Origin: Thermoplasmatales archaeon | GTDB taxonomy: Archaea > Thermoplasmatota > E2 > DHVEG-1 | NCBI GenBank assembly: GCA_041305025.1 | Contig: JBFYMG010000057.1 | Location: 1-58,192 of the forward strand | Length of the DNA: 58,192 bases | Direction: 5' to 3' | In this document: piece after piece, positions 5,701 to 33,520 of the stretch | How the letters are laid out: each line of letters begins with the position of its first letter | Numbering within the stretch: position 1 is the stretch's first letter | Translations under genes and position numbers: made by a program | Notes under the pieces: generated by a model | What the model was told of the DNA's origin: nothing | Seen by the model: the letters and a program-made list of their open reading frames with translations, nothing else | The model's database searches: none

Positions 5701-8700
5701 CTCCAGTAGCGCCATCTGCCGGAGAGGGATTTGAGATTTGTGGAACCTGGTTTGCATAAATCTGATAAGTACAAGCCCAACCATCAGTATTCGGACCTGA
5801 GTATACTGTCAAGAAATAATTTCCTGCACAATAGATTGTAGCCGGTCTTGTATAACAGTCGGTACTAAAGGTTAGCGTATCTATTACTGTTCCACTATAT
5901 GCACCAAGACCATACGTGTTTATTGCCATGGTAACAGTTACGCCATCTGAAGCACTATTTCGATAGGATATTCCATAGATAGCACGATCTGCAGCTGAAC
6001 TGTACGAAACATTAAAAATATATGGATAATAAACGGTGTCACTGCCAGCAAACTCAAGAGTCCCGCCTGAAACCCATGACTTAGTAATAGCACCTGCACC
6101 TGAAATTTGAGTGATATTACATCTACCATCTGAATCAGAATCAACGTATGCGATTGCAAAAAAGTAAGTATCTACTACAAAAGAAGAAGTGCCTACTTTT
6201 TTTATGAAAGGATAATAAGCATTGTAGCGGTCAAATTCCCAACTACTTGTATTTGATGCAGCAATAGTACCAGTTGCTGTTATGTCACGAGTGCCCATAT
6301 GTCCGTCTGTGTTCTTACCAGAATAAACCCACACAAATGTGTTTGAATCCACTGCTTCCAAAGTTGCTGTAGGCATTTTTGAAATCGTATTGTCAATTGT
6401 GACATTTCCTAGTGCCGTTATTACCCCGGCATTTGTTATGTTATATGATTTTAACCTAAAATAATATGCATAATTACAATATGCAATAACAAAGATATTT
6501 GAAGTTGTACTTACTCCCATCTTTAAAACTGACGTTATGTTTGCGCCATTTAGTGTTTTACCCAAATACTCAGACCTTACATCACCACTAATCTTGGATT
6601 GCTGTATAGTTCCGTTTGTATCCCAGACTCTGAATGTAAAAGCATATATGAAACGCCCAACATTATTCGGGCCACCATTACAATAGAAACAAGCATAGAT
6701 GTTTCCATAGACCTTTTGAACAAATATCGAACCAACCGCGTTCGTCGTGGTGTTGAACGTCCATGATGATACGTTTGTTGAACGGATCGTACCATTGTTG
6801 TTCCATACTCTTATTGTATTCAATGAACCATGAAAATTTGTGGTTCCTGCACCTATAAGATAATATTCACTGTTGTTTACTCGTACTGCTGATACGTTCT
6901 TCCCAGTCTGTGGATTCCATTCAAATGAACTTGTAGTTTGGTCTGCGATAAGACCATAGGTAGGGTCAAGTTCGATATGCGTACCAAAAGGAATGTTATT
7001 TCTTTGTATTCTGAATTGGAATTTGCCGTCAATAATATTATTGTCAAATGACAGTCCTGAAAGCCTAGATACATCGCTGTAATCGTATCTAAGAGTAAAC
7101 TGATGATCAAACGCTGTATATTTTATATCAAAAGTTTTACTATCATCGTCATAACTATAATCATCAACAGGAATATCTATTGTAAGAGTAAGACTATAAT
7201 TTGCACGAGGATTAACAGTTGCAGTAAAATCAAGAGTGAATTTCTTTGATTTTTCTGTAACGTCTTTGTAGTTTATGGTCAAGCCGCCAACATCTTCCCA
7301 TTGGTCATTAATATGTGCTTGTAAATTCCATACAGTATGACCAAAAAGATAAACCCATGCTTTTTGATAATTCATCTTTGACGAAATAAACGAACCGGCT
7401 TGGCCTGTCTTTTGTTCCCAAAAATCATCATAAATTTTTGTTGTAATATTTGTATTTGTTTTAGCATTCGCACTTGCATAGTCATCTGACCATTGTTGTA
7501 AAGTTCCCCATGTCGTATAACTCCATGCCACATAATAATAGTTTATTGACTGACTCAGTCTGGTGTCAGAGTATTTCTTCTCTGTACCATCATATACTAA
7601 GGCACCATCATTTCTATTAGTTGGATATGAGCCAATCTTACGAACAATATATGTATTGTTTGCACCAACACCTTTACTCCACGATAAATCAATTCTTGAT
7701 TCGCCAAAAGTTTTTGCAAAAAAGTCGGTTGGTTGCAGTGGTTTAGGTAAAGAGGTATTAGTTTCTGTTTCACCTCCAGTACTTTCATTGGTGCTTTCTT
7801 GTTCTGAGACATCGCATTCACTAATCATACTTTTATTTTCATAACCAACAGCAGAACAAGATACGTTATATTCGTAGATTCCACTTTTATCAAAAGATTT
7901 ACTATAGATGTATAAATTGTTTGCATAGTCCATAATTACTGGTTCGGTCCAACCTTCCTCGTTGAAAGAGATAAGGCACACAGCATTTTCGATACTTTGA
8001 TTAAAACTACTATAATCGGCATAAAACGTTATCATATCATTTGCATATCTCTTTTCATAATCTGTATCATCCCAAATAATTAGATTCGAAACAATAGTCT
8101 CGTTTGTTGTTTCGTTATCATCATTTTCAGGTGGAATTGTTTCATTCGAAGGCGGTATAGTCTCATTCGAAGATCCATTTTCGAATATCGGAACATCAGA
8201 ATTAGCAGTTCCTCCAGTCTCATTTTTTATATCATCCAGAGGCAAAACGCTCCAATCAATCATCGAACTATATTGTGTTTTGTTTGCATCTATTGCTTTG
8301 ATAGTTGCAAAATATTCACCTGCCTTTGCATCACGAACAACCCACTTTGCCTGCCATAACTTATCATTAGTAGAATTGTCAGCTAACGACAAATCTATAG
8401 TTTCAATGCCGCCCATATCGGCAGTGACTGAGCGGACATTGTTGGAGGCGGGAATTGTTACATTTATGAATATTGTATCGCCATCGTGAACGCTTTGCGA
8501 AGAAAAAGAAATAGAAACACCTGAATTTTCATCATTACCATACAAGTATGGCAAGCTAGAAGGAATTACAACAAAGATCAAAATAAAGGACAATATTACT
8601 GCCAAAATCTTTCTTGAGGGCAACTTTTTTTTATATATTTTGAGAGAGTTCTTAGTTATTGCCTCTCTAAAAATTTCATCTGAGGATTTCTTTTTTTCAA

Positions 8701-8824
8701 ATTTTGCATCTAATTTAGAACATTCATTCTTAGATATAGCATCATCAACTAGAATATTTATATCATCAACTAATTCAGCAAGTTTTTTTTGTTCTTTTTC
8801 TGTTAGAGTTTTATCTGAAAACAC
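2747..8824 (-). CDS. Giant multidomain surface protein/adhesin (2025 aa): N-terminal TM/signal, Ig-like, FN3, two repeat propeller-like regions, BNR/Asp-box propeller, C-terminal pilin-like domain
   Basis: TM segment ILAVILSFILIFVVIP. FN3 motif (PTDFFAKTFGESRIDLSWS..YYYVAWSY). Asp-boxes KSTDDGVNW, RSTDGGASW, NSTNRGMTW. Internal duplication. GTG start preceded by ggggag. Confidence 0.88.
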   Translation of the reverse strand: MFSDKTLTEKEQKKLAELVDDINILVDDAISKNECSKLDAKFEKKKSSDEIFREAITKNSLKIYKKKLPSRKILAVILSFILIFVVIPSSLPYLYGNDENSGVSISFSSQSVHDGDTIFINVTIPASNNVRSVTADMGGIETIDLSLADNSTNDKLWQAKWVVRDAKAGEYFATIKAIDANKTQYSSMIDWSVLPLDDIKNETGGTANSDVPIFENGSSNETIPPSNETIPPENDDNETTNETIVSNLIIWDDTDYEKRYANDMITFYADYSSFNQSIENAVCLISFNEEGWTEPVIMDYANNLYIYSKSFDKSGIYEYNVSCSAVGYENKSMISECDVSEQESTNESTGGETETNTSLPKPLQPTDFFAKTFGESRIDLSWSKGVGANNTYIVRKIGSYPTNRNDGALVYDGTEKKYSDTRLSQSINYYYVAWSYTTWGTLQQWSDDYASANAKTNTNITTKIYDDFWEQKTGQAGSFISSKMNYQKAWVYLFGHTVWNLQAHINDQWEDVGGLTINYKDVTEKSKKFTLDFTATVNPRANYSLTLTIDIPVDDYSYDDDSKTFDIKYTAFDHQFTLRYDYSDVSRLSGLSFDNNIIDGKFQFRIQRNNIPFGTHIELDPTYGLIADQTTSSFEWNPQTGKNVSAVRVNNSEYYLIGAGTTNFHGSLNTIRVWNNNGTIRSTNVSSWTFNTTTNAVGSIFVQKVYGNIYACFYCNGGPNNVGRFIYAFTFRVWDTNGTIQQSKISGDVRSEYLGKTLNGANITSVLKMGVSTTSNIFVIAYCNYAYYFRLKSYNITNAGVITALGNVTIDNTISKMPTATLEAVDSNTFVWVYSGKNTDGHMGTRDITATGTIAASNTSSWEFDRYNAYYPFIKKVGTSSFVVDTYFFAIAYVDSDSDGRCNITQISGAGAITKSWVSGGTLEFAGSDTVYYPYIFNVSYSSAADRAIYGISYRNSASDGVTVTMAINTYGLGAYSGTVIDTLTFSTDCYTRPATIYCAGNYFLTVYSGPNTDGWACTYQIYANQVPQISNPSPADGATGVTAPVQLSVTVSDIGDMLNVTWSSNSSGSWVQFGANRSSATNQVMSYGAINTSVTSSREYNKQWGEYPDVIKVGSDATFSYYAIVNCGIGSKGLINTTKVWNSNGSVNRSCVDSYTFDTKGGSYPRILYWGDNTYIIVYYNNVTSRDTVITVDISTTGIITKSIGASLTLTYFSSGSEQTRIDVVRVTGNTFVVAHTDSAGRRLYLETFTVDNKITINGPIDIQAVNGAIEGVYPRMCMVDSDTVAIVYNDRGTNYGYLTTYDIDSGGNIGGAYVDSWTFDTQVSYPFIKKLGSSNCFAIAYRDVAGDGRCNTTRISDAGAITKSWFSGGTLEFDTADCAYPFISSLENNLYVITYQGTDGDGWMKTIKIKDDGQIPDIEYDSLEFDSTDNMGFAPMVSMGSDFYYIAWVGTGHDGWSCTVKIENETGTIVRQTNTNYSNFGTIYYWRVTLSDGTNTNYTTYSFTMGYTVKLDTSPTGLSLQYPGQRKLARDSNGYLYCVYNRTYGGASNIMCAKSTDDGVNWTEYTLTASATISHRGPSIAVDSYDYLHVVFNSSKDGGGGAGNGGITYMRSTDGGASWGTTRYLTKGDSLLSQMYPCMAVDSTDKLHVVWYGRYSGTGANYEIRYCNSTNRGMTWSWPSNVTTYSLFETGTAPSMAIDSNDFVHVVWHSTMGGAGGIEIRYSTENGRGIWSAAVTISVDSNSNDQTYPCIAIDGDDYLHVVWYGKWSGGSVTQIRYTKKTTTWSAPYNISEYTGNQYNPSISVTTGLNDLKVVWYGQKYAGDSALDLRFSEYKSTRWYQPTNLTYSMAYNFYYPNLIWAENPNGTNRPYAGYAFIYANSTTIKYYESTDLSWTVLSCDVSPSTWDIGRPSEGGINETTGSYFTFTNNGNVDVSVQIKASDAVNSSTGFTWNLTQEQSENNFSLRRKTGAEPWKYINETYAVFSSNIATTGTQTFDLKMLMATASTMSDINMTVTVTFKSIIK

Positions 8825-20207: not shown

Positions 20208-20381
20208 ATAATTTATCAATGATTCGCTGAAGAATCATTTAATAGCTTTTATTATTTTTAACTTTATTTATCATGGTCACAATAAATAGAATGTTTACCA
20301 AAGACCATTACAATAAAGTTGATGCTCTTTGCTTTAAAAAAACAAGCGTTCTCATTAAAAGTTATGTTGGTAAATGTTAAT

Positions 20382-20948
20382 TCAGTATTTTTTAAAGCCA
20401 ATCCAACGTGGAGTTTTCTTCGTATAATTTTTGTATTTTTCGCCATATTTTTCAAGGCAAAATTTTTCTTCGTATTTAACAAATAAAACTATAATTATCA
20501 TATAGACAAACGTTATTATTAGAAAAATCCAGGAGTTTGATATCAATCCTATTCCAATATACGCAAAGAAAAATGAGAGATACATCGGATTTCTTGAGTG
20601 TTTATACATACCTGTCGTCACAAGTTCATCTGCCGGTGTTTTTATCCAGCTTATACAAGCACTGCTAACAATAATTATTCCGATAGCCCATAAAACAATT
20701 CCTAAATAGAAAAAAATCGAATCAAAAACTATTGGTAAGAAAAAACTTAAAATAATTGCAAGTATAAAAAAAATTGAGGAAAGGTCATATATAAATCTAA
20801 AAAAACCATCTCTTTTAATTTTTTTTTTGGATGAATCTTCTGGCCTATTCTTTTTTTTATAAACAAAAGGAAGAATTGTTATTATAAGATAAACTATGAG
20901 CAAGATATATGCGTTTATTAAACCTAATTCAAAGTTATTATATATCAA
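20382..20948 (-). CDS. ICMT/PEMT-family membrane methyltransferase
   Basis: LVTTGMYKHSRNPMY and EE..C...YG..Y..Y...TPRW motifs, multiple TM helices, TTG start after aaggtt. Confidence 0.88.
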   Translation of the reverse strand: MIYNNFELGLINAYILLIVYLIITILPFVYKKKNRPEDSSKKKIKRDGFFRFIYDLSSIFFILAIILSFFLPIVFDSIFFYLGIVLWAIGIIIVSSACISWIKTPADELVTTGMYKHSRNPMYLSFFFAYIGIGLISNSWIFLIITFVYMIIIVLFVKYEEKFCLEKYGEKYKNYTKKTPRWIGFKKY

Positions 20949-21310
20949 TTTTTAACCTTGCTTTATTTTTTATATATTTTGTTTTCCCCAGCATATACTA
21001 ACGTTAATTATAAATAATTACCCTTTCAGCATCTCCTAAAATTATTTCTGTTTCATTTTTTATAAAATCCTTTGTAAAAAATTTACAGTTTTTATAAAAT
21101 ACAACTTTATCTGATTCATATACTGGTTTTTCATATCGAATTTTTTAGTTTAATCATTAACGGGTATTCTTCCAATTTATTTAGAACAACCTGCAATAAA
21201 CCCTTTTGTTTTTTGTCTTTATTGAAAAAAGGAGTGAAAATAAAAAAAAGTAAGATTATTTTTGATACGGTTAAATAAAGAAATAAATTAGAGTTGTTTT
21301 TTATTTTCAA

Positions 21311-21337
21311 CCAGTTGGTTAGCAATTACCCAACTGG
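21311..21337 (-). terminator. 8-bp stem-loop overlapping the stop codon of the precursor ORF (terminator or stabiliser)
   Basis: ccagttgg (21311-18) is the exact reverse complement of ccaactgg (21330-37), with an 11-nt loop. Confidence 0.5.
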
Positions 21338-21412
21338 ACACTCTGGAACATGTAGAGATCCGTATGTTATTTCCTTATTTACAGATTTCATTTTTGGTTT
21401 CGTGTATTTCAT
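21326..21412 (-). CDS. Putative RiPP precursor peptide, 28 aa: MKYTKPKMKSVNKEITYGSLHVPECPVG
   Basis: Manual translation. SD-like aggttgat just upstream, own BRE/TATA, YxxP motif in a Lys-rich leader, and location inside the rSAM/PqqD cluster. Confidence 0.8.
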   Translation of the reverse strand: MKYTKPKMKSVNKEITYGSLHVPECPVG

Positions 21413-21448
21413 TTTTTATCAACCTTATTAATTTTATATGTTTTTCTT

Positions 21449-21465
21449 TATATAAATAGTTTTCC
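21449..21465 (-). promoter_or_regulatory. Archaeal BRE/TATA promoter for the precursor ORF
   Basis: The minus strand reads GGAAAACTA-TTTATATA, ending 37 nt upstream of the ATG at 21412. Confidence 0.6.
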
Positions 21466-21506
21466 TTACATTTATTACCACATTTATAGACGATTTAGAA
21501 AATTAT

Positions 21507-22520
21507 TCAGATAAACTTTCTATAACTTAGATCTTTTAAAAACATTATTATTTGTATAATGAGAAATACGGTAGGTATTATCGACATTGTTAGAAATGAT
21601 AAAGAAGAATATACGAAAAATGGCCACAACATCGTTGAAATTGGAAGGAAAAAATTTATGTTTTTTTGTCTTAAATCAAAATCTTTTATTTTCTCATGTC
21701 TTAACCATAAAATCATAAGAACTGGAAACACCACTAGAAAGGAAAAAGTAATAATATCTAAATAAAAATTATAAACACATAAAACTAATAACAAAATCCA
21801 TAAGATAATAGCTACATGAATTGTCCAGTTATAGCCAAGTATCACATTAGTGGGTTTTATTCCAAATTCCTCATCTGTTTTAATATCCCGCCAACTGATA
21901 ATTAAAGTATAAGAAATGACGGGGATGCCCATTATCAATCCAAGAGCGAAAATATCCATACTTAGCTTCGCTCCAGTAGTCAACCATCCTAAAACAAAAG
22001 GTAAAGAACCGAAAATTAACATGTTTGAAATCATGTCTATCAGTGGTTTGGTTTTAAATCTAACAGGAGGTGCAGAATACGAAAATGTGATAATAACAAG
22101 AATCAAACCCACAATAAAAAGTGTAAAATCAAAATAATACCATAGAAAATATAAACCAATAAAAGAACAAATAATTGATGATATAAACATTTCTTTATCT
22201 GAAATATATTTGAATACCCACACATTATGTTTTCTTGCAAATATATCAAGTTTTTTATCAAATAAAAAATTAGTAAAGCCACTAATAAATTCAGCCAATA
22301 TTAGAAAAAATATCATTATCAAAGTAGGATAAAACAAAAAATCTTTTATTGCCCACCATTCTCCCAGCAACAAAAATGAAATAGTAATAGGAACTGTTGG
22401 AATGCGGGAGGCAATAAGATAAGCAAGAAATTTTCTTTTTAAATAGTTTAAGCGTGGATTTTTGATATTTTTATCGTCGAATTTTTTTCCCCAATAAAAT
22501 TCTTCGAAATTTTTAACCAT
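21507..22520 (-). CDS. UbiA-family prenyltransferase (copy 1)
   Basis: NFLFDKKLD and DIKTD Asp-rich motifs, YSAPPVRFKTKP, about 9 TM helices. Confidence 0.9.
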   Translation of the reverse strand: MVKNFEEFYWGKKFDDKNIKNPRLNYLKRKFLAYLIASRIPTVPITISFLLLGEWWAIKDFLFYPTLIMIFFLILAEFISGFTNFLFDKKLDIFARKHNVWVFKYISDKEMFISSIICSFIGLYFLWYYFDFTLFIVGLILVIITFSYSAPPVRFKTKPLIDMISNMLIFGSLPFVLGWLTTGAKLSMDIFALGLIMGIPVISYTLIISWRDIKTDEEFGIKPTNVILGYNWTIHVAIILWILLLVLCVYNFYLDIITFSFLVVFPVLMILWLRHEKIKDFDLRQKNINFFLPISTMLWPFFVYSSLSFLTMSIIPTVFLIIQIIMFLKDLSYRKFI

Positions 22521-22597
22521 ATGAATCAGCCGTTTTTTTTTCTTTCATGCAATACTTTTTAAGCTTTTTATACTTACTAAAATATTGAACAGATATT

Positions 22598-23638
22598 ATG
22601 AATAATAGTGCCACAGCAGATTCGTATAGTAATGACATAAACATTGACGGTTTTAAAATAAGAATAGATGATTTTATAGAAGAAAGAATACTTCCGGATT
22701 ATTTCAATTCACCCTTTATTGGACAATGGGAAATTACAAGAGAATGCAACCTTAGATGCATATTTTGTTATAACAATTCCGGAGAAAAACTACCTAATGA
22801 ATTAACACACAAACAAAAAATAAACGTTGCAAAACAGATTGTGGGGGAAAAAATATATCGAATGTGTATAAGCGGAGGAGAACCAATTCTTTGCGAGTCT
22901 TTTTGGGATATCGCTAAAATTTTAAAACAAGGAAAAATCTTCTGCAATACCATAACTAATGGATGGTATGTCAGCGAAGAAAATGCATCTTTATATGCCA
23001 AATATTTTAAAAATATTCAGATCAGTTTAGATGGCAGAAAAAAAGAGACGCACGATAAACTACGGGGTAAAAAAGGTAGTTGGGAAAAAGCCGTTAATGC
23101 CTGTAAACTAATCAAAGATAATGGAGGAAAAATATCAATTGCAACAGTTGTAACTCCAATTAATCTACATGAGATTGAAGAATTAATTGATTTTTCATAT
23201 AGCATGGGTGCAATGGATATAAAACTTGAGGAAGTGATATTTACAGGTAGGGCATCAAACATAACTTATGATATTTCTTTATCTGAAAAACAATCATCTG
23301 AACTAGCAAAAATAATAAAACATAAAAAAAATGAATACAATGAAAAATTGTTTAATGTCGATATCGTACCTAAGACTCAATATAATTATGTTAGGGGTTT
23401 TACAAAAATCCCGCCAGTCTCAATATATATTTCGCCAACTGGCACATGCGCAATCGACCCGGTTCTTCCTTTCTCGGGTGGTTCTTTAAAAGAAAAAAAT
23501 CTAAAGGAAATTTGGAGCAACCTTAAAAAAATTCATAAAAATAAAGATTTCATAAATTATTCACTGAAAGTAAAAACAGGAAAAGATTTTAAAAATATTG
23601 ATAATATCCCTTACTTCAATGGTGAATTACATGATTGA
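22598..23638 (+). CDS. Radical SAM enzyme, PqqE/MftC-like peptide-modifying type, with a degenerate SPASM/twitch tail
   Basis: WEITRECNLRCIFC, ISGGEP, TITNG, QISLDG..HD..RG..GSW; overlaps a PqqD gene. Confidence 0.9.
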   Translation: MNNSATADSYSNDINIDGFKIRIDDFIEERILPDYFNSPFIGQWEITRECNLRCIFCYNNSGEKLPNELTHKQKINVAKQIVGEKIYRMCISGGEPILCESFWDIAKILKQGKIFCNTITNGWYVSEENASLYAKYFKNIQISLDGRKKETHDKLRGKKGSWEKAVNACKLIKDNGGKISIATVVTPINLHEIEELIDFSYSMGAMDIKLEEVIFTGRASNITYDISLSEKQSSELAKIIKHKKNEYNEKLFNVDIVPKTQYNYVRGFTKIPPVSIYISPTGTCAIDPVLPFSGGSLKEKNLKEIWSNLKKIHKNKDFINYSLKVKTGKDFKNIDNIPYFNGELHD

Positions 23639-23924
23639 TAAAAATCTTAAACCAAAACTTGCAAAAGACATAGTATACAAAGAAGAAGGAAAAAAAGGGG
23701 AAACTATAAGCATGGCGAGTTACATAGGTGGCCCAATTAGACTTTTAAACCCTATTGCTAGTAAAACCGTTAAACTCTTAGATGGAAAACATACAATTCA
23801 AGAGATTATAACAGAAATATATGAATCATTTGAGGATACTGATTTAAAAACAGTAGAAAACGATATAATAGAATTTTTATTAGACCTTGAAAAAAAGAAA
23901 ATCATAGAACCATTAAAAAATTAA
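23631..23924 (+). CDS. PqqD-family RiPP recognition element (97 aa)
   Basis: LN..A......LDGKHT..EI...I...F......VE.DI.EFL..L.KKKII pattern. ATG at 23631 after ggtga, overlapping the rSAM stop. Confidence 0.9.
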   Translation: MIDKNLKPKLAKDIVYKEEGKKGETISMASYIGGPIRLLNPIASKTVKLLDGKHTIQEIITEIYESFEDTDLKTVENDIIEFLLDLEKKKIIEPLKN

Positions 23925-23930
23925 AAACAA

Positions 23931-24908
23931 TTACCCTTTAACATATTTTGTAAAGATAATAATGTCATAAATTATAAAAAATATCCAAATCATTAAAAAG
24001 AAAATTGGGAAAATATTTTTTGAAAAAAAACTTAACAAAATTAAGATAGCGCCTGCAAAAAATAAAGTGCTTAAACCCCCGACTATATTTACCAACAATT
24101 TACGATTATTTCTATAAACAAAAGCAAGGATTATAAGAGGAATATAAGCCAAAAGAGAAATTGTCAATAAATCCGTAATTTCAAAAAAATAGATCGCTAT
24201 AAATAAATCGAGTATGTATATGACACTCCCCACTATGAGAGAATTTTTTAAACCTATAATATTGCAAGAAGTTCTTATGCCCAATTCCTTATCCATCTCT
24301 ATATCAGTTGTTGTATAGAAAAAGAAAATATGTGAAATAATTAAAAAAAGAATTAAAAAATAAAAAATAGACTCAAAGGTTAAAGAATTTAGTGTTATCA
24401 TCCATCCCATAAAAAAAGGAATCGACCCGCCTAGTGCATTCATTAAACAATCAAATGGTGGTTTTGTTTTAAGTCTAATTGGGGGAGTAGAATAAAATAT
24501 ACCTATTACAACTATTAAAAATCCCAACAAAAAAACCTCAATGTTTATAAAAAAATATAGCAATAACAGAGGAATAAATGATAAAAAAACGGACATAACC
24601 AGCATTTCTTTTGTAGAAATATATTGAAATACTTTAACAATAGGTTTTCTTGCGAATATATCAATTTTTTTATCAAAGACGATATTTATCATAGAGCCTG
24701 CCGAAAAAATTCCTAAAAGCGCCAATAATACAATCACACTTTCAACAACTGGGAATTTTTGTATAGAATACCATTCACCTAAAAGAAAAAAAACTGATAC
24801 AATAAACCAACAAGATAACCTAAACGAATTAATGTAAGAAATAAATTTATTTTTTAAAAAACGGGATTTTGAGTTTTGCTTTTTCTCAACCATCTGCATC
24901 AAGTCCAT
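23931..24908 (-). CDS. UbiA-family prenyltransferase (copy 2)
   Basis: NIVFDKKID and DIEMD motifs, YSTPPIRLKTKP, multiple TM helices; clear paralog of 21507..22520. Confidence 0.9.
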   Translation of the reverse strand: MDLMQMVEKKQNSKSRFLKNKFISYINSFRLSCWFIVSVFFLLGEWYSIQKFPVVESVIVLLALLGIFSAGSMINIVFDKKIDIFARKPIVKVFQYISTKEMLVMSVFLSFIPLLLLYFFINIEVFLLGFLIVVIGIFYSTPPIRLKTKPPFDCLMNALGGSIPFFMGWMITLNSLTFESIFYFLILFLIISHIFFFYTTTDIEMDKELGIRTSCNIIGLKNSLIVGSVIYILDLFIAIYFFEITDLLTISLLAYIPLIILAFVYRNNRKLLVNIVGGLSTLFFAGAILILLSFFSKNIFPIFFLMIWIFFIIYDIIIFTKYVKG

Positions 24909-25007
24909 TAGTTTTTTACTTAAATAACTTATCTTAAGTTCGAAATTTTGTATAATTCAAAAAGTGTATAAACTTTAATAGTAAGATAGAATATTATATC
25001 GCTAGAG

Positions 25008-26276
25008 ATGAATAAAGACAAAGACGACGAAAAAAATTTATTAAACAAATCTTCTAAAGAAGGACATATAATTGATAATGTACCATTTGTGGGCCAAGAA
25101 AACAGTATTTTTTGTTCATATGCTTGTCAAACAATGATTATAAAATATTATAATCGAAATGTTAACTTAGACGATTTTGTTTTTAACTCAGGAGTAAGTT
25201 ATTCGTTAGGCTATGCTAAAGATTATTTTAATTACTTTCCAACTTGTGGTACTTTTTTATCACAATGGCCACTCGACAGAAATTTTGTCGCTAATCTTTA
25301 TGGTTTAGAATTCGAAACCTGGTTTCCAACTGATTTAAGCAATTCAACATCTGAAATCTGGAATACGTATTGGGAAAAAATAAAATCATATCTCAAAAAT
25401 GATATTCCTGTATCTACATCAGTAGATTTAGTATCTCTACCTGCCTTTAGAGAACTCATCAACAATCAGTTGTGGATAAATGCAAAAAAAATCCCAAATT
25501 TCTCATGGAGCTTAGTTTCAACTGCCCATGAAATAGTAATTGTTGGATTCGATGAAGGAAAAAAATTGATTTACTACAATGATCCTGTTTCATTAAATCT
25601 TGGCAATGTTGATAATGGAATATATGCATCTGCTCCTTTGGATGTTTTTGCAAGATCAGTAGCTAATGCAAAAGTTGGTAATTTTTTTCCCAACTTCATC
25701 ATCAACACATATAAGGAAAAAAAACCTGCTTCATCTGATGAGATTATTTTTAGAAAATCACACGATAGAAATATCCAAAAACTTAGAGGAAATCCTTTAT
25801 TTTATGATGAGAAGTGGCGAAAATATCCTCTTGGCATAAATGCATTAAATGAAATAATTAAAAATTTTGAAAATATGAATAAAGAGAAAAATAAAGAATT
25901 AATATCAACATACAAATTAGATAGTGTTAAAAAAGCTTTTATGAAAAAGATTTCCTCAATTTTTACTAAAAAATCAGGTTCTCAATACCTAATTGATTCA
26001 TTTATAAATATTTATGATATTTTTTCTACTGAAAAAAAACATGCTTATGACTATTTAAAAAATAAATCTATAAATTCAAAAGAGTTACAAAATGAAATAG
26101 ATCTATTTGGTAAAGAAATGGAGAAATGGCAAGAAATTTCAAAATTTTATTCACGTTTTTACAAAGAATTAGTGCTTCCAACAAAAAACAATAAAATTCA
26201 AAAATTTAATGAAAAATTAGTTTCAAATATTTCAGATATAATAGATATCGAAAAAAGAATAGCAGATATTTATTAA
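25008..26276 (+). CDS. C39-like (BtrH_N/C39_2-type) cysteine peptidase
   Basis: NVPFVGQENSIFCSYACQTM (Gln/Cys) and HEIVIVGFD..IYYNDP (His/Asp) papain-like triad pattern; no signal peptide. Confidence 0.8.
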   Translation: MNKDKDDEKNLLNKSSKEGHIIDNVPFVGQENSIFCSYACQTMIIKYYNRNVNLDDFVFNSGVSYSLGYAKDYFNYFPTCGTFLSQWPLDRNFVANLYGLEFETWFPTDLSNSTSEIWNTYWEKIKSYLKNDIPVSTSVDLVSLPAFRELINNQLWINAKKIPNFSWSLVSTAHEIVIVGFDEGKKLIYYNDPVSLNLGNVDNGIYASAPLDVFARSVANAKVGNFFPNFIINTYKEKKPASSDEIIFRKSHDRNIQKLRGNPLFYDEKWRKYPLGINALNEIIKNFENMNKEKNKELISTYKLDSVKKAFMKKISSIFTKKSGSQYLIDSFINIYDIFSTEKKHAYDYLKNKSINSKELQNEIDLFGKEMEKWQEISKFYSRFYKELVLPTKNNKIQKFNEKLVSNISDIIDIEKRIADIY

Positions 26277-26307
26277 AAAATAGTTAACTAGATCAGTAGG
26301 AATAAAC

Positions 26308-27168
26308 ATGGATAATATAAAAATTGATATAAACGGGGTGTCGGAGACGCTTTTTTTTATCTTATATGCAAGAGCTATAGAAAGTCAATCAAAAGACCCA
26401 ATTATACAGGACCAAAAATCTGCTGAAATCGTTAAAATCCTTGATAAATTTCTTTCAGAATCAAATTCAAAAACACTTAAAAAACTTTATAACCGTAGGC
26501 TTTCAAAATATTATGTAATTTTAAAAGCCTTAAGAACAAAAAAATTTGATGATTATGTTAAAGACTTTTTATCAAAAAATCCAAATGGAATCATTGTAAA
26601 CATGGGATGTGGATTGGACACAAGATTTTATCGTATTGACAACGGAAAAGTAGAATGGTATGATATAGATTTACCACAAGTAATAGAGTTAAAAAAATAT
26701 TTCCTAAAAGAAAATGAAAGGTACCATTTCATAAGTTCTTCATTACATGATTTTAATTGGATGGATGTTTTATCAAAACATAAAGACCAATCTTTTATGT
26801 TTCTTGCTGAAGGAGTCTTTCAATACTTTTATGAAAATGAAGTAAAATCACTAATAGTTGAATTGCAAAAAAAATTTCCGGGATGTGAAGTTGCATTTGA
26901 TGTGACAAGCATGTGTATGAAAAGAAAACAAAATAACAGATTATTTAATGCCTATTTTAAATTCATGACAGGTTTAAATCAAGATGTAAATATTAACTTT
27001 GGGATTAAAAAAAGTCAAGAGATTTCATCTTGGAATGATGGCATTGAATTATTAGATGAATGGAGTTTTTTTGATAGGGAAATAGAAAAATTAAAATTTT
27101 TTAAGTTATACAAATTTTTAGAATCTGTAAGAAGAACAGATTGGATTGTTCGCTATAAATTGATTTAG
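26308..27168 (+). CDS. Class I SAM methyltransferase, LCM/TcmP-like
   Basis: GVSETL...YARA.ES, RT..FD, IVNMGCGLDTRFYR, WYDIDLP.VI, FLAEGV. Confidence 0.88.
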   Translation: MDNIKIDINGVSETLFFILYARAIESQSKDPIIQDQKSAEIVKILDKFLSESNSKTLKKLYNRRLSKYYVILKALRTKKFDDYVKDFLSKNPNGIIVNMGCGLDTRFYRIDNGKVEWYDIDLPQVIELKKYFLKENERYHFISSSLHDFNWMDVLSKHKDQSFMFLAEGVFQYFYENEVKSLIVELQKKFPGCEVAFDVTSMCMKRKQNNRLFNAYFKFMTGLNQDVNINFGIKKSQEISSWNDGIELLDEWSFFDREIEKLKFFKLYKFLESVRRTDWIVRYKLI

Positions 27169-27313
27169 TTTTTTAATATCGTTGGTTGTTTTGTCGAAAG
27201 ATTTTTTATTATTTTATTAAAAAAATTATCTTTTCATTTTAAAAAACATAGATTTGATGTTTTAAAAACGTTAATAAATATATTACACATTATAAAGGCG
27301 GAGGCAAATAAGT

Positions 27314-29818
27314 ATGAAAAAAATTTTATCGATTGTTTTAGTAGGAATATTAATTTTGAGTGGAATTCAAGTTGTTGCTATCACAAGCAATACAAATACC
27401 GATGTAAAAGCCGATGCTAAATCTGAGATGATCATAAAGGCATTTTCAACACCAACAATAAAAGACAGTGACAATAGCTACATCGAAGTTAATCTTAAAG
27501 ATGCATCATCTTATTTGATGAGCCCTGGTCAGCCCAAGCTGCCAAAGGTTGTTGAATCTTTTGAATTACCTTTTGGTGCTAAAAATATTAAAGTGGAAGT
27601 GGCACCAGGTACTATTGTTGAACAGAAAATTACAAAAGAAATATGTCCTGCGCCTGCTATGCTTCCATTGATAGCTGATGAAAATACAGTTAGTTTTACC
27701 CAAGAAAAGGATTTAAAAACATACAGCAGCGATGATCCTTATCCCTCCAATTGGTACAGCTATAATGTTAGGTGTGGTTTAAACAAGGACAACGAAAGAG
27801 TAATTAATGTTATAGTTGACATTTATCCAGTAAGATATGTTCCATCCAAAGGAATTATTTACACTACGGAAAGTAGCGACATAAAGATAACTTATGAGGA
27901 AACCGACAGACAAATTTTCAATGGAGTTACAGAATATGATCTTGTAATTATTGCACCCTCTAAGTTTAAAAATCAACTTAAAAGGTTAGTGGATCATAAA
28001 AATAGCGTAGGAATAAGTACCTTTATTAAAACAACCGAAGAAATTTACAAAGAATACTCTGGCCGTGACAAACCAGAGAAAATAAAATATTTTATAAAAG
28101 ATGCAATTGAGAAAAACAATATCATATATGTTCTCCTTGTTGGTGGTTTGAAATCACAGATTTACGCTAAACCAAGAGATGACGCAAATCAGGGTACAAG
28201 AGGATGGTACGTACCGGTACGTTACACCAATCTTTATGACAATCCAAAATTCCCACTCGCCGAAAAATACTATGATCCAGGCATAATAAGCGATTTGTAC
28301 TATGCTGATATATATGATGGAAATGGAAATTTCAGCAGCTGGGATACAAACAATGACGATATATTTGCTGCATGGGGCAAACCAGGTGTGAAAAACGACA
28401 CAGGAATAGATTTACAACCTGATGTGTGCCTAGGTAGACTTGCATGCACAAGTAGAAGAGAAGTAAAAACAGTTGTTGATAAAATAATAAAATACGAAAC
28501 TAGTTCTGTTAGCACAACTGATTGGTTTAATAAAATGACAGTTGTGTCAGGCGATGGATTTATTGATCAACAGGATCTAAATATTAAATGGGACACAACA
28601 GGTTTAATAAACGGATATTACACAATATATGCACAGAGTATAAACGATGAAAATTTGGAAGGCCCTGTTGATACAATATCAATAAGGATAGATAGAAGAC
28701 TTGAAACTAAAATTACTTTTAATCATGATGACAACCTAAATCCTGCACTTAAAAATGGTTATCCTGCACCCCCTATAGCTGAATTGGTTTCCATATCACC
28801 TGACGACATACTAGGCTACAGTGACTATACATATACTCCTAATGAAGGAGAAGCATATGGTAATGATTTCAATCACTGGGCAAACATTAGCTACATAGAT
28901 GGTATCCTAACAATAAGGGGTAAATCATATGATCCGCAGCCCTATGGAAATCTTACAAATATTCATGTGTGGATTAAAAACCAAGATGGCATAGTTATTT
29001 TTTCGGAGTGGAGAAACAACACTGAGATGTATTATGAGGGAGAATGGACAACCGGTGAAAAAGAGTTATCAGGAAGAGGTGGAGCCCTTTACTACATACC
29101 CAGTAGCTTTGAAAGAAACATACTTTGGACTTCAAATGGCAGATTGACAGGACAAAAAGATGTTCTTAAAGCTATAAATGAAGGTTGTGGTTTTCTTTTC
29201 ATGTCAGGTCATGGTAGCCCAAATGTTTGGGCTGATCACTACCCGGGTGTTCCTGGAAACCGCAAATATGGAAGCGTCACTGGTCTGCAGGTTTCAACCG
29301 TCAAACCATGGCGTCCTTTTTATTCAAGACCAGCTTTCCCGATTGATACTCTTTCAAACGATGAAAAACTGCCGATCGCAGTGATTGGTGGTTGTCACAA
29401 CAGCCAGTTTAATGTCTCTTTAATTCCTGCATTATACGATATTCTTCCAACCTATCTTAAGTTCCTACCAAAAATATCTATGTGGACATATGGTAGCGCT
29501 GTTCCAGAATGTTTCAGCTGGCGTCTGATAAGCAACCCACATGGTGGCGCAATAGCGACAATAGGCAATACTGGTCTTGGTTATGGTATGCCAGGCAAGG
29601 ACTTAACCATAGGCGGTGGTGACGGATGGATCACTATAGAGTTCTTCAAACAATACGGAACGGAAAATCAGACAATACTTGGAAAAGCACACACTCAGAC
29701 AATTATAAGTTATATACATAACTTTGATATGAATGATCTTGAAGCAGGTCATCCTAAAACAGTGCAACAATGGGTTTTACTGGGAGATCCCACTTTAAAG
29801 ATAGGCGGGTACAGCTAA
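27314..29818 (+). CDS. Secreted C25 (gingipain-family) cysteine peptidase with propeptide
   Basis: Signal peptide, propeptide (PGQPKLP), YVLLVGG, SDLYYAD, GRL, catalytic SGHG and GGCHN, LLGDPTL. Confidence 0.9.
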   Translation: MKKILSIVLVGILILSGIQVVAITSNTNTDVKADAKSEMIIKAFSTPTIKDSDNSYIEVNLKDASSYLMSPGQPKLPKVVESFELPFGAKNIKVEVAPGTIVEQKITKEICPAPAMLPLIADENTVSFTQEKDLKTYSSDDPYPSNWYSYNVRCGLNKDNERVINVIVDIYPVRYVPSKGIIYTTESSDIKITYEETDRQIFNGVTEYDLVIIAPSKFKNQLKRLVDHKNSVGISTFIKTTEEIYKEYSGRDKPEKIKYFIKDAIEKNNIIYVLLVGGLKSQIYAKPRDDANQGTRGWYVPVRYTNLYDNPKFPLAEKYYDPGIISDLYYADIYDGNGNFSSWDTNNDDIFAAWGKPGVKNDTGIDLQPDVCLGRLACTSRREVKTVVDKIIKYETSSVSTTDWFNKMTVVSGDGFIDQQDLNIKWDTTGLINGYYTIYAQSINDENLEGPVDTISIRIDRRLETKITFNHDDNLNPALKNGYPAPPIAELVSISPDDILGYSDYTYTPNEGEAYGNDFNHWANISYIDGILTIRGKSYDPQPYGNLTNIHVWIKNQDGIVIFSEWRNNTEMYYEGEWTTGEKELSGRGGALYYIPSSFERNILWTSNGRLTGQKDVLKAINEGCGFLFMSGHGSPNVWADHYPGVPGNRKYGSVTGLQVSTVKPWRPFYSRPAFPIDTLSNDEKLPIAVIGGCHNSQFNVSLIPALYDILPTYLKFLPKISMWTYGSAVPECFSWRLISNPHGGAIATIGNTGLGYGMPGKDLTIGGGDGWITIEFFKQYGTENQTILGKAHTQTIISYIHNFDMNDLEAGHPKTVQQWVLLGDPTLKIGGYS

Positions 29819-30595: not shown

Positions 30596-33520
30596 TTACT
30601 TACCACCTTCATTTAATGGATCATATGGATTGAGTGCTGGATCTCCAAATAACATATACTCCTGATATGATGTATATTTGTTCTTCATCATATATGGATC
30701 TTCCAAGGCCGCGCTCTCCATTAAATTCGAATAAGTATTTCTTATCTGAACATCTTCTGCTAAATCTCCCGTATTTACTAGCGGTGGAGACCACCATAGT
30801 TCCCAGTCTGCATCCTGCGGAATGTACTTATTTTTAGCATCCCTTAAGGCCTTTCCGAAAGTAGCATCATCGTTTGTTATTGAATCAAGCATATCTGAAT
30901 ATATAAGGAAGCCAAAGTGATCGTCCGGATAAATGCCGTTCTTGGCGTTACGTTTTGCTTTTATGTATGACGCCAAAACTGAGAGATGAGTATCGACCTG
31001 TCTTTTCTTAGGCTCAAGATAACCTCCAGCAATATTTGATCCTGTTGGAGATGCAATAAGAGTCGCTACACCTGCATGCAAGAATGATTGGCCAAGGCTA
31101 CCTTTGGGATACATTCCATCTATTTTTCCACAGATACAACTCTCAAGCCATACGAAAGATGGACCTAATTTCATGGTCTCTACTTGTCGAGTATTGTATT
31201 GACAATGGGCCGCAAGAGAGGAACCAGGTCCTGTGCTAGGAGATACAACTTCCAATACCTTTTTCATCATAAACTTTGCTATGGGGCCTCCTATACCTGA
31301 GGATATTAAGTCAATACCATCCATGGCAAGAATGGCCATATTACCATGTCCATTTAAAAACGCAAAGTTAGCATCTTCTATCATCTTCCCGCCCGTTACA
31401 GCTCCTTCTCCGACGAGTTTTCTAATCATTGGCTTGAAGAATAACAATTTATTATAAGCTGCTGATTCATATTTAATCTTATTAAGAGCTTCATCGCTAA
31501 ATCCTTGTAAACCTGCTTGCTCTTTATAGGCTTGGTATACAGTTGTAAATCCCCATGTTTCTTTTGCATCTACAACCATTTTTTCCAACATTATTTCGCC
31601 ATAACCTGTCTCTAGTTTCATTGGCTCACCAGCATGGCCTGCGCCAAGTAACTTAGCTATTGGATACTTAATTGGAGGTTGCTGGAAATCTTGACCTTCA
31701 CCAACTAATACTGTAAAGGTGTCTTTCCAATCACCTAACTTCTCAATGATATCAGAGTAAAAGATGTTCCTAGCAATTAAAGCGCTGGCGTCTTGAGCAT
31801 CCCAGCCAGTTATACGCCCTACAATATTTTCTTGATATGGATACTTTGTAAAAACATCGTTTGCGAGGTTAGACCAATCATAGAGCGTTGGATCAATATT
31901 ACCATAAACTACATCGCTGGGGGTACCAACGCCCCAACCATACTGTCCATTCCAGTAATCAACGGGTTCAAGATAATTCTGATAAATAAAGTTAGGCAGA
32001 ACTGTGCCATCACCTACTAGTGCAATATAAACGGGAAATGCATCATAATGATCACGTAAAGTTTTGATATCTCTATCATCTACAAGTTCAATATCTGCAA
32101 TTTTGGCTAATACATCATTTAATGGTTTGTGAATTACATCAAAAAAATGCGTGTTTGCTTTATCTGTTATCCTAGGATTCCTTCGAGGCATATAGAAACC
32201 TGGACTGGTAGTTCCTTCATCGGTTAATACATCATCATCAGCAGTGAAAGCAAACTCAGGTTTAGCAAATACAATTCCATGATGATAAGCTGTTAAATAT
32301 GGTGCTAACGATGAAAGACCCTTCATCATTGGATAAACTGGATTTTCAAGTTTTTCCACAACAACATTTGCCGTAACTCTGCCTTGCTTCAAAGTTAGCC
32401 ATTGCCCTTTGCATCTAACTGTGTACTCTACGCCTCCACGACCATACAACACTGTTTCACCATATATCATATCTGTGATTAAATTGCCATTTGCATCTCT
32501 TTCTGCTATGCCGCCTGTTGCAGTTGAGCCTGAAAAGCCTTCATTAGTTTGAAGAGGTGAAGGTATATCAGGAAGATTTGCACCAACAGTGAAAGTTACA
32601 GAATCGCCGAGTTCATCTACATTCTCACAATCAAGATTTATTCCTTCAAATTTTATGAGAGCATATTTGTAATCATTCGGTATTTTAAAAGTGCCTAAAG
32701 TATATGCTCCTCCCTTAAGTAGAGCCTGGCCGATTCTTGTGCTAGAACCAGACGGGATCGTCATTGGTCCAAAAGAAAATGAAACAGCATCTAAAACCTT
32801 TGGTGGCCACGCATCTCTTGGATTTGCAAGAGTAATATAATCGATGTCACCAAATTTCTCTTGGACTAATTCAATGGATGCATCAACAATTTCATCAACA
32901 TCATCAAATTTTATGTAATCTCCATAACCATCTACATCACCGCAAACAAGCGAGTATTTAACACCTAGATCTTGGAGAACTTTATTTACATCTTGGTCGA
33001 GTTCATCAGTAACTATGATGGGCATGGTAAGATACGAAGCCAATGGAGCAGCTACAACACCCAGATCATAACCAGTTTCATTATTCTCTATTATGAGAAC
33101 TCCATCGCTGTGATCCCAATATTCCTTTGCAATTTGAAGAGAACATTCCTTTGCGGAAGTACCTTCTTTCGCGGGAATTTGTATTTTACCTGATTGCATA
33201 TCTAACTGATCATATAATTTAGTAACAGCTGATGATGGATCATCTAAATTTACTACTAAAAAAGGTTTTGTATGCTGTACGCCCTCGGTGTCATAGTGGA
33301 CAGCCAATGGTGTCGCAATAAGAGCATAAAATGGACTACAATCCAAAACGGATATTGCATCTGGCGCATTAGAAGATAAAACGCCGGAAACACTGAATAC
33401 TTCTTCTAGATTTGCCTCTACTTTTTTTGTTTCTTGAGGAGCCCAGTAATAGACTCCAATTGAAGCCATTACTAATATTAATACTCCAAATAAAACTATT
33501 AACTTATCATTCTTTTTCAT
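30596..33520 (-). CDS. Large membrane-anchored C25-like cysteine peptidase relative (974 aa)
   Basis: N-terminal TM, IALVGD, VGRITG, FLNGHG, WLESCICG and LFGDPAL echo the C25 catalytic layout. Confidence 0.65.
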   Translation of the reverse strand: MKKNDKLIVLFGVLILVMASIGVYYWAPQETKKVEANLEEVFSVSGVLSSNAPDAISVLDCSPFYALIATPLAVHYDTEGVQHTKPFLVVNLDDPSSAVTKLYDQLDMQSGKIQIPAKEGTSAKECSLQIAKEYWDHSDGVLIIENNETGYDLGVVAAPLASYLTMPIIVTDELDQDVNKVLQDLGVKYSLVCGDVDGYGDYIKFDDVDEIVDASIELVQEKFGDIDYITLANPRDAWPPKVLDAVSFSFGPMTIPSGSSTRIGQALLKGGAYTLGTFKIPNDYKYALIKFEGINLDCENVDELGDSVTFTVGANLPDIPSPLQTNEGFSGSTATGGIAERDANGNLITDMIYGETVLYGRGGVEYTVRCKGQWLTLKQGRVTANVVVEKLENPVYPMMKGLSSLAPYLTAYHHGIVFAKPEFAFTADDDVLTDEGTTSPGFYMPRRNPRITDKANTHFFDVIHKPLNDVLAKIADIELVDDRDIKTLRDHYDAFPVYIALVGDGTVLPNFIYQNYLEPVDYWNGQYGWGVGTPSDVVYGNIDPTLYDWSNLANDVFTKYPYQENIVGRITGWDAQDASALIARNIFYSDIIEKLGDWKDTFTVLVGEGQDFQQPPIKYPIAKLLGAGHAGEPMKLETGYGEIMLEKMVVDAKETWGFTTVYQAYKEQAGLQGFSDEALNKIKYESAAYNKLLFFKPMIRKLVGEGAVTGGKMIEDANFAFLNGHGNMAILAMDGIDLISSGIGGPIAKFMMKKVLEVVSPSTGPGSSLAAHCQYNTRQVETMKLGPSFVWLESCICGKIDGMYPKGSLGQSFLHAGVATLIASPTGSNIAGGYLEPKKRQVDTHLSVLASYIKAKRNAKNGIYPDDHFGFLIYSDMLDSITNDDATFGKALRDAKNKYIPQDADWELWWSPPLVNTGDLAEDVQIRNTYSNLMESAALEDPYMMKNKYTSYQEYMLFGDPALNPYDPLNEGGK

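Follow-up and report, generated by a model that had tools for sequence, protein, structure and literature searches.

A candidate RiPP precursor gene beside radical SAM, PqqD and UbiA genes in uncultured Thermoplasmatales archaea, with a probably isoprenoid-carrying product

Does a 28-codon open reading frame (ORF) in an AT-rich stretch of archaeal DNA encode a peptide at all, and if it does, what do the enzymes encoded around it make of that peptide? The ORF lies at 21326..21412 on the minus strand of contig JBFYMG010000057.1 (assembly GCA_041305025.1), a stretch of 58,192 nt from a Thermoplasmatales archaeon that is called the window here. It runs from an ATG at 21412-21410 to a TAA at 21328-21326 and encodes MKYTKPKMKSVNKEITYGSLHVPECPVG. 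An initial annotation had described it as a hidden precursor peptide serving the neighbouring radical S-adenosylmethionine (radical SAM) enzyme and PqqD-family protein; the coordinates and sequence were confirmed, and the basic leader, the Y3-x-x-P6 motif and the T16-Y17-G18 tripeptide are present as it described them. In the surrounding cluster the gene order is ICMT-like, precursor, UbiA-1, radical SAM, PqqD, UbiA-2, C39_2 and LCM (names after Pfam and NCBIfam). Based on the comparisons below, which mark the ORF as a real, conserved and selectively constrained gene, we consider it very probable that it is the real precursor of its cluster for a peptide that is ribosomally synthesised and then modified post-translationally (RiPP). 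It is also likely, with somewhat less assurance, that it is the structural (precursor, or A) gene of a RiPP cluster seen so far only in uncultured Thermoplasmatales archaea and operating by the mechanism proposed here, whose product is probably a short peptide carrying an isoprenoid lipid.

The size of the ORF is by itself no evidence of a gene, because short ORFs abound in these AT-rich surroundings (183 ORFs of at least 20 amino acids within the 15 kb around it). A hidden Markov model (HMM) of the leader was built from seven seeds and run on 13,201 ATG-started small ORFs in 95 sequences comprising the window and the other loci collected (0.97 Mb). It recovered independent members adjoining orthologous radical SAM genes in L092 (E=1e-11) and L093 (E=2e-5), and in the six-frame translation of the window it picked out the precursor ORF at E=1e-16, with the runner-up at 0.55. 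A metagenome scan with the radical SAM alignment, which chose generic radical SAM motifs and in which 78 of 80 loci were unrelated, provided a negative control: the leader HMM had no match below E=0.5 in the approximately 80 unrelated radical SAM loci. At the leader codons, the proportions of nonsynonymous (pN) and synonymous (pS) differences between the window and L001, L092, L084, L087 and L096 were 0.04-0.13 and 0.38-1.1, respectively, for a pN/pS of about 0.1; for the more distant L088 and L093 they were 0.25-0.27 and 0.49-0.70. Synonymous sites of the leader were thus near saturation between the window and most relatives. As far as substitution patterns can tell, this shows strong purifying selection and translation in the precursor frame from M1.

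A chance ORF, or a conserved non-coding element such as a regulatory RNA or a spacer, might be suspected here, given the many short ORFs of this AT-rich region and the antisense ORFs that overlap the precursor on the plus strand at 21294-21431 and 21364-21459. The leader's low pN beside its high pS, however, excludes a chance ORF, either of the antisense frames and an element that is only non-coding, since synonymous sites have changed nearly to saturation while the amino acids were kept. Homologues of the peptide also occur at differing positions and orientations within their clusters, and Rfam and tRNA scans of the window gave no matches, so that the probability of this explanation is practically negligible. 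No Pfam or NCBIfam model matched the precursor peptide, the best being ScmA at E=0.15, a weak resemblance in the leader. A 64-residue TTG-started ORF directly 3' of the precursor (21131-21325, minus strand) is likely spurious, with no Pfam match and DNA that does not align with L001.

Searching for relatives by a regular-expression scan, then the leader HMM and then a protein-database search (with a query alignment led by a 42-residue gene-caller version) yielded 17 distinct peptides: those of the window, L001, L097, L092, L084, L087 (two), L096, L088 (two), L093, P0069, P0071, P0074, P0077, P0078 and P0079. The peptide of L089 is a weak member and was kept outside the 17. All members with readable context lie in an orthologous cluster beside the radical SAM-PqqD pair, nearly always with UbiA genes as well, and the peptide adjoins the orthologous pair in the window, L001, L097, L084/85, L092, L087, L096, L088, L093 and L089; the sequences of L086 and L094 end before the expected precursor position. 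A search for homologues near related radical SAM genes, which the initial annotation had proposed, thus found them in every related locus with enough sequence. The position within the cluster varies: the precursor follows UbiA-1 in the window, L001, L097, L084 and L092, lies between the C39 and LCM genes in L087 and L096, follows C39 in L088 and L093, and precedes the radical SAM gene in L089. Two tandem precursor copies are present in each of L087 and L088.

The 17 peptides fall into two parts of very different conservation. Residues 1-19, the leader (MKYxKPKM..VDKE[IV][TS]YG[STA]), had a mean pairwise identity of 72%, and the core, which spans 8-13 residues, only 33%. M1, K2, Y3 and P6 were invariant (17/17) and K7, M8, K13 and G18 nearly so; the leader starts M-K-Y-x-[KS]-P-[KE]-[MI], with K or E and then M or I after P6, and Tyr17 is replaced by Ser or Phe in some members. 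In the core, the second position (residue 21) was always aromatic, being H in four peptides, W in five and Y in eight, preceded by L, Q or A, and 16 of the 17 peptides had a Pro within the last four residues. A conserved leader joined to a hypervariable core is the signature of a RiPP, and this family has it. Together with the homologues beside orthologous clusters, it bears out the proposed role of the ORF as a hidden precursor for the neighbouring radical SAM and PqqD proteins.

Public gene calls place the starts of two members at upstream ATGs, giving peptides of 42 residues (L097:6666-6794, minus strand) and 44 residues (L087:10608-10742, minus strand). Both called starts lie upstream of the conserved MKY, that of L097 downstream of the conserved TATA block, and both are probably mis-called. 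Further afield, a distant relative with a radical SAM protein 38% identical (L005:6893-10480) has its radical SAM-PqqD pair followed by two precursors of 52-53 residues that start MKYIKPEI and MKYLKPEI and have long hydrophobic cores, then by an ABC ATPase and an FtsX-like permease; an HExxH membrane protease is encoded upstream, and no UbiA gene was present in the stretch read (3-11.5 kb). Since these precursors carry MKYxKP, that leader start reaches beyond the UbiA-linked family. Beside an unrelated radical SAM gene, a 58-residue ORF (L076:5052-5228, plus strand) that contains a SYQKPKVEQVEL motif internally and ends in a Cys-rich stretch is probably a YxxP-type RiPP precursor of another family.

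The initial annotation had also given the ORF a promoter of its own, and here the comparison with relatives was again informative. The window encodes the archaeal markers Nre, a methanogen-type seryl-tRNA synthetase N-domain and EMC6_arch; it is archaeal, and archaeal promoter logic therefore applies. A scan for bacterial sigma-70 promoters and hairpin terminators, which is not pertinent to an archaeon, found none above shuffle expectation. The block TGTAAGGAAAACTATTTATATA (21449..21470, minus strand) ends 37 nt upstream of the ATG and consists of a purine run resembling a transcription factor B recognition element (BRE) followed by a TATA box, TTTATATA, at 21449-21456. Within it, the 18-mer AAGGAAAACTATTTATAT (21450-21467, minus strand) is unique in the window, where 0.02 occurrences would be expected with up to two mismatches, and unchanged copies of it precede the precursor in L001 and L084/L085, with a two-mismatch variant in L097. 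A Shine-Dalgarno-like site, AAGGTTGAT (21418..21426, minus strand), stands 5-6 nt before the ATG, and such sites (GGTTGAT, AGGTTGG, AGGTTGAC or GGAGGA-type) were found 5-9 nt 5' of every family member. A T-rich terminator-like block, CTAATTTATTTCTTTATTT (21273..21291, minus strand), lies 35-53 nt after the stop; it is identical in L001, where the flanking spacer cannot be aligned, and T-runs follow the other precursors.

Between the ICMT-like gene and UbiA-1, the window and L001 were alignable at only a few places, namely the Shine-Dalgarno-like GGTTGAT, the ORF, the T-rich block, TGTAAGGAAAACTATTTATAT (displaced by an insertion or deletion) and a short Shine-Dalgarno-like stretch directly 5' of the ICMT-like gene. 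The BRE/TATA and Shine-Dalgarno signals are therefore conserved in relatives while the surrounding spacer DNA is not, and conservation of the BRE/TATA block in L001, L084/L085 and L097 supports the claim of a separate promoter. We infer that the block functions as a promoter, and by archaeal promoter geometry transcription would start about 10-15 nt upstream of the ATG.

How the peptide might be recognised is suggested by its leader (codons 1-19, 21356-21412, minus strand, MKYTKPKMKSVNKEITYGS). A [Y/W]xxPx[L/V/I/F/A] motif is experimentally required for binding to discrete RiPP recognition elements (RREs) in lasso peptide and linear polyphosphorylated peptide (LPP) systems (PMC13381572). The Y3-x-x-P6-K-M of the precursor fits this motif. 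The candidate partner is a PqqD-family RRE of 97 residues, counted from M12 of the longest ORF (23631..23924, plus strand; Pfam PqqD 9.7e-10), which matched PF05402 with 39.1 bits against a cut-off of 23.4 and, weakly, the NCBIfam PqqD, ScmD and lasso PqqD models. Its start overlaps the radical SAM stop by 8 nt in the window, and the PqqD gene overlaps the end of the radical SAM gene in every cluster. We think it likely that this protein would bind the leader through Y3, P6 and M8 and present the peptide to the radical SAM enzyme.

For the removal of the leader, the cluster offers a Peptidase_C39_2 papain-like cysteine peptidase of 422 residues, predicted to be the leader peptidase (25008..26276, plus strand; Pfam 1.6e-13), in which C36, H174 and N191-D192-P193 were invariant among 13 homologues. 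C39 peptidases cleave after GG, GA or GS. Of the 17 aligned peptides, 16 have a leader that ends in G-[S/T/A] and one, that of L093, has A-G; the weak member in L089 has L-G. Because this junction resembles a double-glycine-type site and a C39-like peptidase is encoded in the same cluster, cleavage after Ser19 is favoured, and with a cut after residue 19 the aromatic residue would become the second of the core in all members, which a cut after G18 would not achieve. The chances that this enzyme removes the leader are about evenly balanced, and those that it does so at exactly this bond, after G18-S19 with release of LHVPECPVG, are slightly poorer than even. The initial annotation had instead given the core as (G)SLHVPECPVG; G18-[S/T/A]19 behaves as part of the leader, and the core probably begins one or two residues downstream of the start given there, with the predicted core in codons 20-28 (21329-21355, minus strand; LHVPECPVG). 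Splicease-type chemistry on an X-Y-G motif at T16-Y17-G18 was given low weight, as L088 and L093 lack the Y-G and the tripeptide behaves like the rest of the leader.

The radical SAM peptide maturase itself (346 residues; 22598..23638, plus strand) carries CxxxCxxC at C50/C54/C57 and matched Pfam Radical_SAM at 1.8e-25; NCBIfam radical SAM models stayed below cut-off. By sequence and by predicted fold (AlphaFold2 [AF2], with a predicted local distance difference test score [pLDDT] of 84), the closest solved structures are the RiPP maturases SkfB, SuiB, PqqE and CteB. Besides the CxxxCxxC cysteines, C90 is invariant and C116, C169 and C284 nearly so, and in a degenerate, SPASM/twitch-like C-terminal domain only C284 is conserved (24/27). 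The auxiliary-cluster cysteine set of SPASM/twitch domains was absent and Pfam SPASM was not detected in this protein, which thus appears to have no auxiliary cluster, an unusual state for a PqqD-partnered peptide maturase. Since these cysteines are missing, redox-neutral chemistry (epimerisation, for instance) or an attack on the invariant aromatic residue seems likelier than an oxidative cross-link of the sactionine type. The enzyme would modify the core, with any single guess at the type of reaction being doubtful.

More unusual companions of a RiPP precursor are the two membrane prenyltransferases. UbiA-1 (337 residues, integral membrane; 21507..22520, minus strand; Pfam UbiA 6e-19) has the Asp-rich motifs N84/D88/D92 and D212/D216 invariant among 11 orthologues, and its best sequence match in the PDB was chlorophyll a synthase at 1.7e-5. 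UbiA-2 (325 residues, membrane; 23931..24908, minus strand; Pfam UbiA 2e-27) has N75/D79/D83 and D202/D206 invariant among 12 orthologues. Because both motifs are kept invariantly, both enzymes are likely to be active. Aromatic rings, hydroxyls and carboxylates all serve as acceptors for enzymes of the UbiA family, and in RiPPs of the cyanobactin type prenyl groups are known on Tyr, Trp and His. The His/Trp/Tyr at core position 2 is proposed as the lipidation site because it is the sole core feature common to all 17 peptides. That the two enzymes attach isoprenoid chains to the peptide is plausible, the probability that a UbiA acts on it falling a little short of even; the assignment of this particular site is more tentative.

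A final modification may come from the LCM/TIGR00027-type SAM-dependent O-methyltransferase (286 residues; 26308..27168, plus strand; Pfam LCM 6.5e-21), which scored 86 bits with TIGR00027 against a cut-off of 93.6 and has an orthologue in eight related loci. Known targets of the LCM family are the Leu at the C-terminus of PP2A and polyketide carboxyl groups. Methylation of a carboxyl group by this enzyme, possibly at the C-terminus of the peptide, is conceivable, although we would call it unlikely rather than likely. The outcome of these steps would be a short lipopeptide, rich in Pro and associated with the membrane, and the hypervariability of the core, together with the tandem precursor copies in some loci, suggests a pheromone-like or antagonistic role.

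One subclade, which includes the window, carries an additional gene that appears to be tied to a feature of the peptide. Only 4 of the 17 cores contain Cys, always at position -4 and followed by Pro: CPVG in the window, CPGL in P0077, and CPIA and CPVA in L001 and L097. The accessory gene encodes a membrane methyltransferase of the ICMT/PEMT superfamily (188 residues) and is found at 20382..20948 (minus strand) in the window, at L001:5842-6405 and at L097:5863-6429, and in these loci only. All three Cys-core loci with known context therefore carry it, and the other related loci searched had neither a core Cys nor an ICMT-like gene. As the window, L001 and L097 form one clade, the link between Cys and this gene counts as one evolutionary event, to which P0077 (...IPCPGL), the fourth Cys core, adds a leader of a different sub-type. 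The protein matched Pfam PEMT at 1.5e-12 (48 bits, above cut-off), Pfam ICMT at 8.9e-5 (23.3 bits against a cut-off of 24) and the NCBIfam isoprenylcysteine O-methyltransferase model at 5.8e-14 (52 bits against a cut-off of 160), with a weaker match to MddA; its best PDB match was 4A2N, the Methanosarcina Ma-ICMT, at 5e-8 over the full length with the SAM-binding motifs aligned.

Judged from this co-occurrence, the pattern suggests either carboxyl methylation of a prenylated Cys, as in CaaX processing, or S-methylation of the thiol, and in the Cys-containing subclade the ICMT-like enzyme would act on the C-P-x-x end. A full counterpart of CaaX processing, in which a UbiA would S-prenylate Cys25 (-4), the last three residues would be removed and the ICMT-like enzyme would methylate the prenyl-cysteine carboxylate, seems to us quite unlikely even within the subclade. 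If true, the product would be a lipopeptide resembling a-factor, archaeal ICMTs would gain their first class of natural substrates, and these UbiAs would be the first to prenylate a peptide. As a mechanism for the whole family, CaaX processing was rejected, Cys being present in only 4 of 17 cores.

The cluster forms a compositional island directly after gyrB/gyrA, with 26.8% GC over 20208-27313 against 37-38% in the flanks, and cluster GC was below that of the flanks in nine of nine related loci tested. Among 5.8 billion proteins, 38 radical SAM orthologues were graded (44-93% identity), and genomic contexts were taken for twelve of them, one without DNA. The set UbiA-1, radical SAM, PqqD, UbiA-2, C39_2 and LCM recurs across the related loci; members whose radical SAM protein is at least 46% identical have one or two UbiA prenyltransferases, usually accompanied by the C39-like peptidase and LCM. 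The cluster occurs in four different neighbourhoods, beside gyrA, DUF1246/1297, an ABC transporter or saccharopine dehydrogenase. Because the gene set recurs, the contexts are four and the GC is always lower, it behaves as one mobile functional unit, which suggests a mobile accessory island. Curated NCBIfam models, whether equivalog or subfamily, stayed below cut-off for every cluster protein.

Some loci have additional genes around the shared set. A sulfatase-family gene is present in L088 and L093, in the latter fused in an operon with UbiA-1; L093 (L093:2509-13766) also has YcaO, a second radical SAM/SPASM enzyme and a split B12-binding radical SAM protein, with the precursor MKYKKPEMKEINKEVSFAGLYAGIYPL. 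In L089 (L089:3257-4393) a GGR_cat geranylgeranyl-reductase-like gene, a sulfotransferase and two glycosyltransferases flank the family member, which hints at a C20 isoprenoid as the lipid and at further tailoring. Directly after the cluster in the window, two large gingipain-like Peptidase_C25 proteins are encoded at 27314-29818 (plus strand) and 30596-33520 (minus strand), and the first has orthologues behind the clusters of L087 and L096 as well; these genes are probably conserved neighbours and not cluster members, as the GC there is back at genome level. Elsewhere in the window, an ORF of 2025 residues (2747-8824, minus strand) had no Pfam match at E<=1e-5.

If the ORF is a RiPP precursor, do the lipid-type enzymes belong to the same pathway? 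The peptide, radical SAM, PqqD and C39 genes could form a RiPP pathway and the UbiA, LCM and ICMT-like genes a separate, co-located lipid or quinone-type pathway. The known acceptors of UbiA enzymes are all small molecules or lipids, a peptide-prenylating UbiA was not found in the literature, and the most distant radical SAM-PqqD-precursor relatives, L091 and L005 (3-11.5 kb), have no UbiA gene in the sequence read. The genes, however, are interleaved, the precursor sitting between the ICMT-like gene and UbiA-1 and the rest running UbiA-1, radical SAM-PqqD, UbiA-2, C39 and LCM; they travel together through four unrelated contexts as one low-GC island; and the ICMT-like gene tracks a peptide feature, the C-P-x-x end. 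We therefore regard two separate pathways as rather unlikely. Alternatively, the peptide could be the raw material of a redox cofactor or of a carrier soluble in lipid, akin to PQQ (pyrroloquinoline quinone) or mycofactocin, formed from conserved residues (Tyr17 or aromatic residue 21) and then prenylated and methylated like a quinone. Radical SAM, PqqD and peptide are the PQQ/mycofactocin architecture (with NCBIfam PqqE and MftC matches), and UbiA and methyltransferases recall quinone pathways. Precursors of PQQ and mycofactocin, however, have reacting core residues that do not vary (E..Y; a C-terminal GVY), whereas here residue 21 varies among H, W and Y, some peptides have Ser or Phe in place of Tyr17, and the cores are hypervariable, with more than one copy in some loci. 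The system is also rare, its genes lie on a compositional island instead of in core metabolism, and the PqqE and MftC models remain far below their cut-offs, making such a cofactor very unlikely.

Two established RiPP classes were also weighed for the peptide itself. A sactipeptide- or ranthipeptide-like precursor, its Cys thioether-linked by the radical SAM enzyme, would agree with SkfB as the top match in sequence and fold, with StsB among the top NCBIfam matches and with the one Cys of the window core; yet 13 of 17 cores have no Cys though the radical SAM enzyme is kept in all, and the auxiliary-cluster cysteines are missing, so that we consider it highly improbable. The initial annotation had reasoned in the manner of lasso peptides, from a Thr at -2 of the proposed cleavage site, and a lasso-type precursor does find some agreement in the YxxP leader, in the discrete PqqD-type RRE and, for a core started at G18, in a Glu at position 7. 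Lasso cores combine Gly, Ala, Ser or Cys at position 1 with Asp or Glu at positions 7-9, however, and that Glu is found only in the window and L001, whereas 15 of the 17 members lack Asp or Glu at these positions; position 16 is T, S or V, and Pfam detected neither an Asn-synthetase-like cyclase nor a transglutaminase-like B2 protease in the window cluster and related loci. A tail of four residues is moreover too short to thread. The lasso reasoning was accordingly not upheld, and the probability of a lasso peptide is minimal. The reading we prefer remains a RiPP whose precursor, maturase and lipid-type enzymes belong to one pathway.

Several points weigh against this preferred reading. The sample is small, comprising 17 peptides from one archaeal lineage: two independent scans of 185,579 GTDB species representatives, one with the leader pattern and one with PqqD patterns, found only two metagenome-assembled genomes (MAGs) labelled 'uncultured Thermoplasmatales archaeon'. 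Common ancestry could account in part for what the members share, the aromatic residue at position 2 included. All family sequences come from metagenomes or MAGs, and the peptide is known here from genes alone. The RRE fold of the PqqD protein is drawn from the Pfam match alone, its single-sequence AF2 model having a pLDDT of 47.6, and the leader/core boundary as placed is likewise deduced from the alignment. The chemistry of SkfB or PqqE is not transferable to a radical SAM enzyme without the SPASM/twitch cysteines. Our literature searches found no UbiA-family enzyme that accepts a peptide, leaving strict gene linkage as the basis of the prenylation step, and no exporter is encoded in the window's cluster.

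What remains is a coherent and conserved archaeal RiPP family with a defined precursor, and to our knowledge few RiPPs are known from archaea. Its linkage to two catalytically intact UbiAs, to the geranylgeranyl reductase of one relative and to the ICMT-like enzyme of a subclade points to isoprenoid lipidation of a ribosomal peptide. If confirmed, this would extend the RiPP toolbox by a new kind of lipidation, carried out by enzymes of a family for which no action on peptides is known; it would supply a substrate to the archaeal ICMT homologues, for which we know of no described natural substrate; and it would suggest that uncultured Thermoplasmatales use peptides as pheromones or in antagonism. 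Now that its precursor is known, the pathway is directly testable by heterologous expression. Literature searches on UbiA with RiPPs, on archaeal radical SAM RiPPs and on RiPPs of Methanomassiliicoccales or Thermoplasmata found no description of this system, and by a count of occurrences UbiA is not mentioned in a 2026 review of peptide prenylation. The precursor family, a radical SAM/RRE RiPP coupled to membrane UbiA prenyltransferases in archaea, is thus apparently undescribed.

Among known systems, the closest are the RiPPs made by a radical SAM enzyme with a PqqD-type RRE (SkfA/SkfB, PqqA/PqqD/PqqE, SuiA/SuiB of streptide and ScmA/D/E/F of the SynChlorMet cassette), which share the short precursor with conserved leader and variable core and the discrete PqqD-family RRE directly after the radical SAM gene, with SkfB, SuiB and PqqE as the nearest enzymes. 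Unlike them, the present system has no model at cut-off for its radical SAM enzyme (NCBIfam) or its peptide (Pfam and NCBIfam), lacks the auxiliary Fe-S cysteines, conserves no Cys, Lys-Trp pair or Glu-Tyr pair in its core, and is archaeal and UbiA-coupled. Lasso and LPP leaders are similar in their Y-x-x-P-x-hydrophobic motif near the N-terminus and their stand-alone PqqD-like RRE, but here no lasso cyclase, B2 protease or LPP kinase is present and the motif starts at residue 3, after Met-Lys.

With respect to the lipid, the eukaryotic CaaX pathway (FTase/GGTase, Rce1/Ste24 and ICMT, as for yeast a-factor) is comparable in the Cys at -4, in an ICMT-like methyltransferase with five transmembrane segments and in the presence of prenyltransferases in the cluster. 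It differs in that the prenyltransferases here have the UbiA fold, the a1 position is Pro, Cys occurs in only 4 of 17 cores and the Pfam ICMT match is just below cut-off; neither FTase/GGTase alpha-beta subunits nor Rce1/CPBP or Ste24 were found in the cluster, the only peptidase there being C39-like (Pfam). ComX of Bacillus, with its ComQ-prenylated Trp, and the cyanobactins modified on Tyr, Trp or His by F-type enzymes are presumably alike in their short (6-13 residues), hypervariable peptides, in the isoprenoid on an aromatic residue that is predicted here and in a pherotype-like diversification. In place of ComQ, which resembles trans-isoprenyl diphosphate synthases, or of a soluble ABBA enzyme, however, our cluster has integral-membrane UbiA proteins, a radical SAM/PqqD step is added, and prenylation is a prediction. 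Taken together, the system resembles a PqqD-dependent radical SAM RiPP pathway and, failing the tests for lasso peptides, sactipeptides or ranthipeptides and cofactor precursors, lies outside any defined class.

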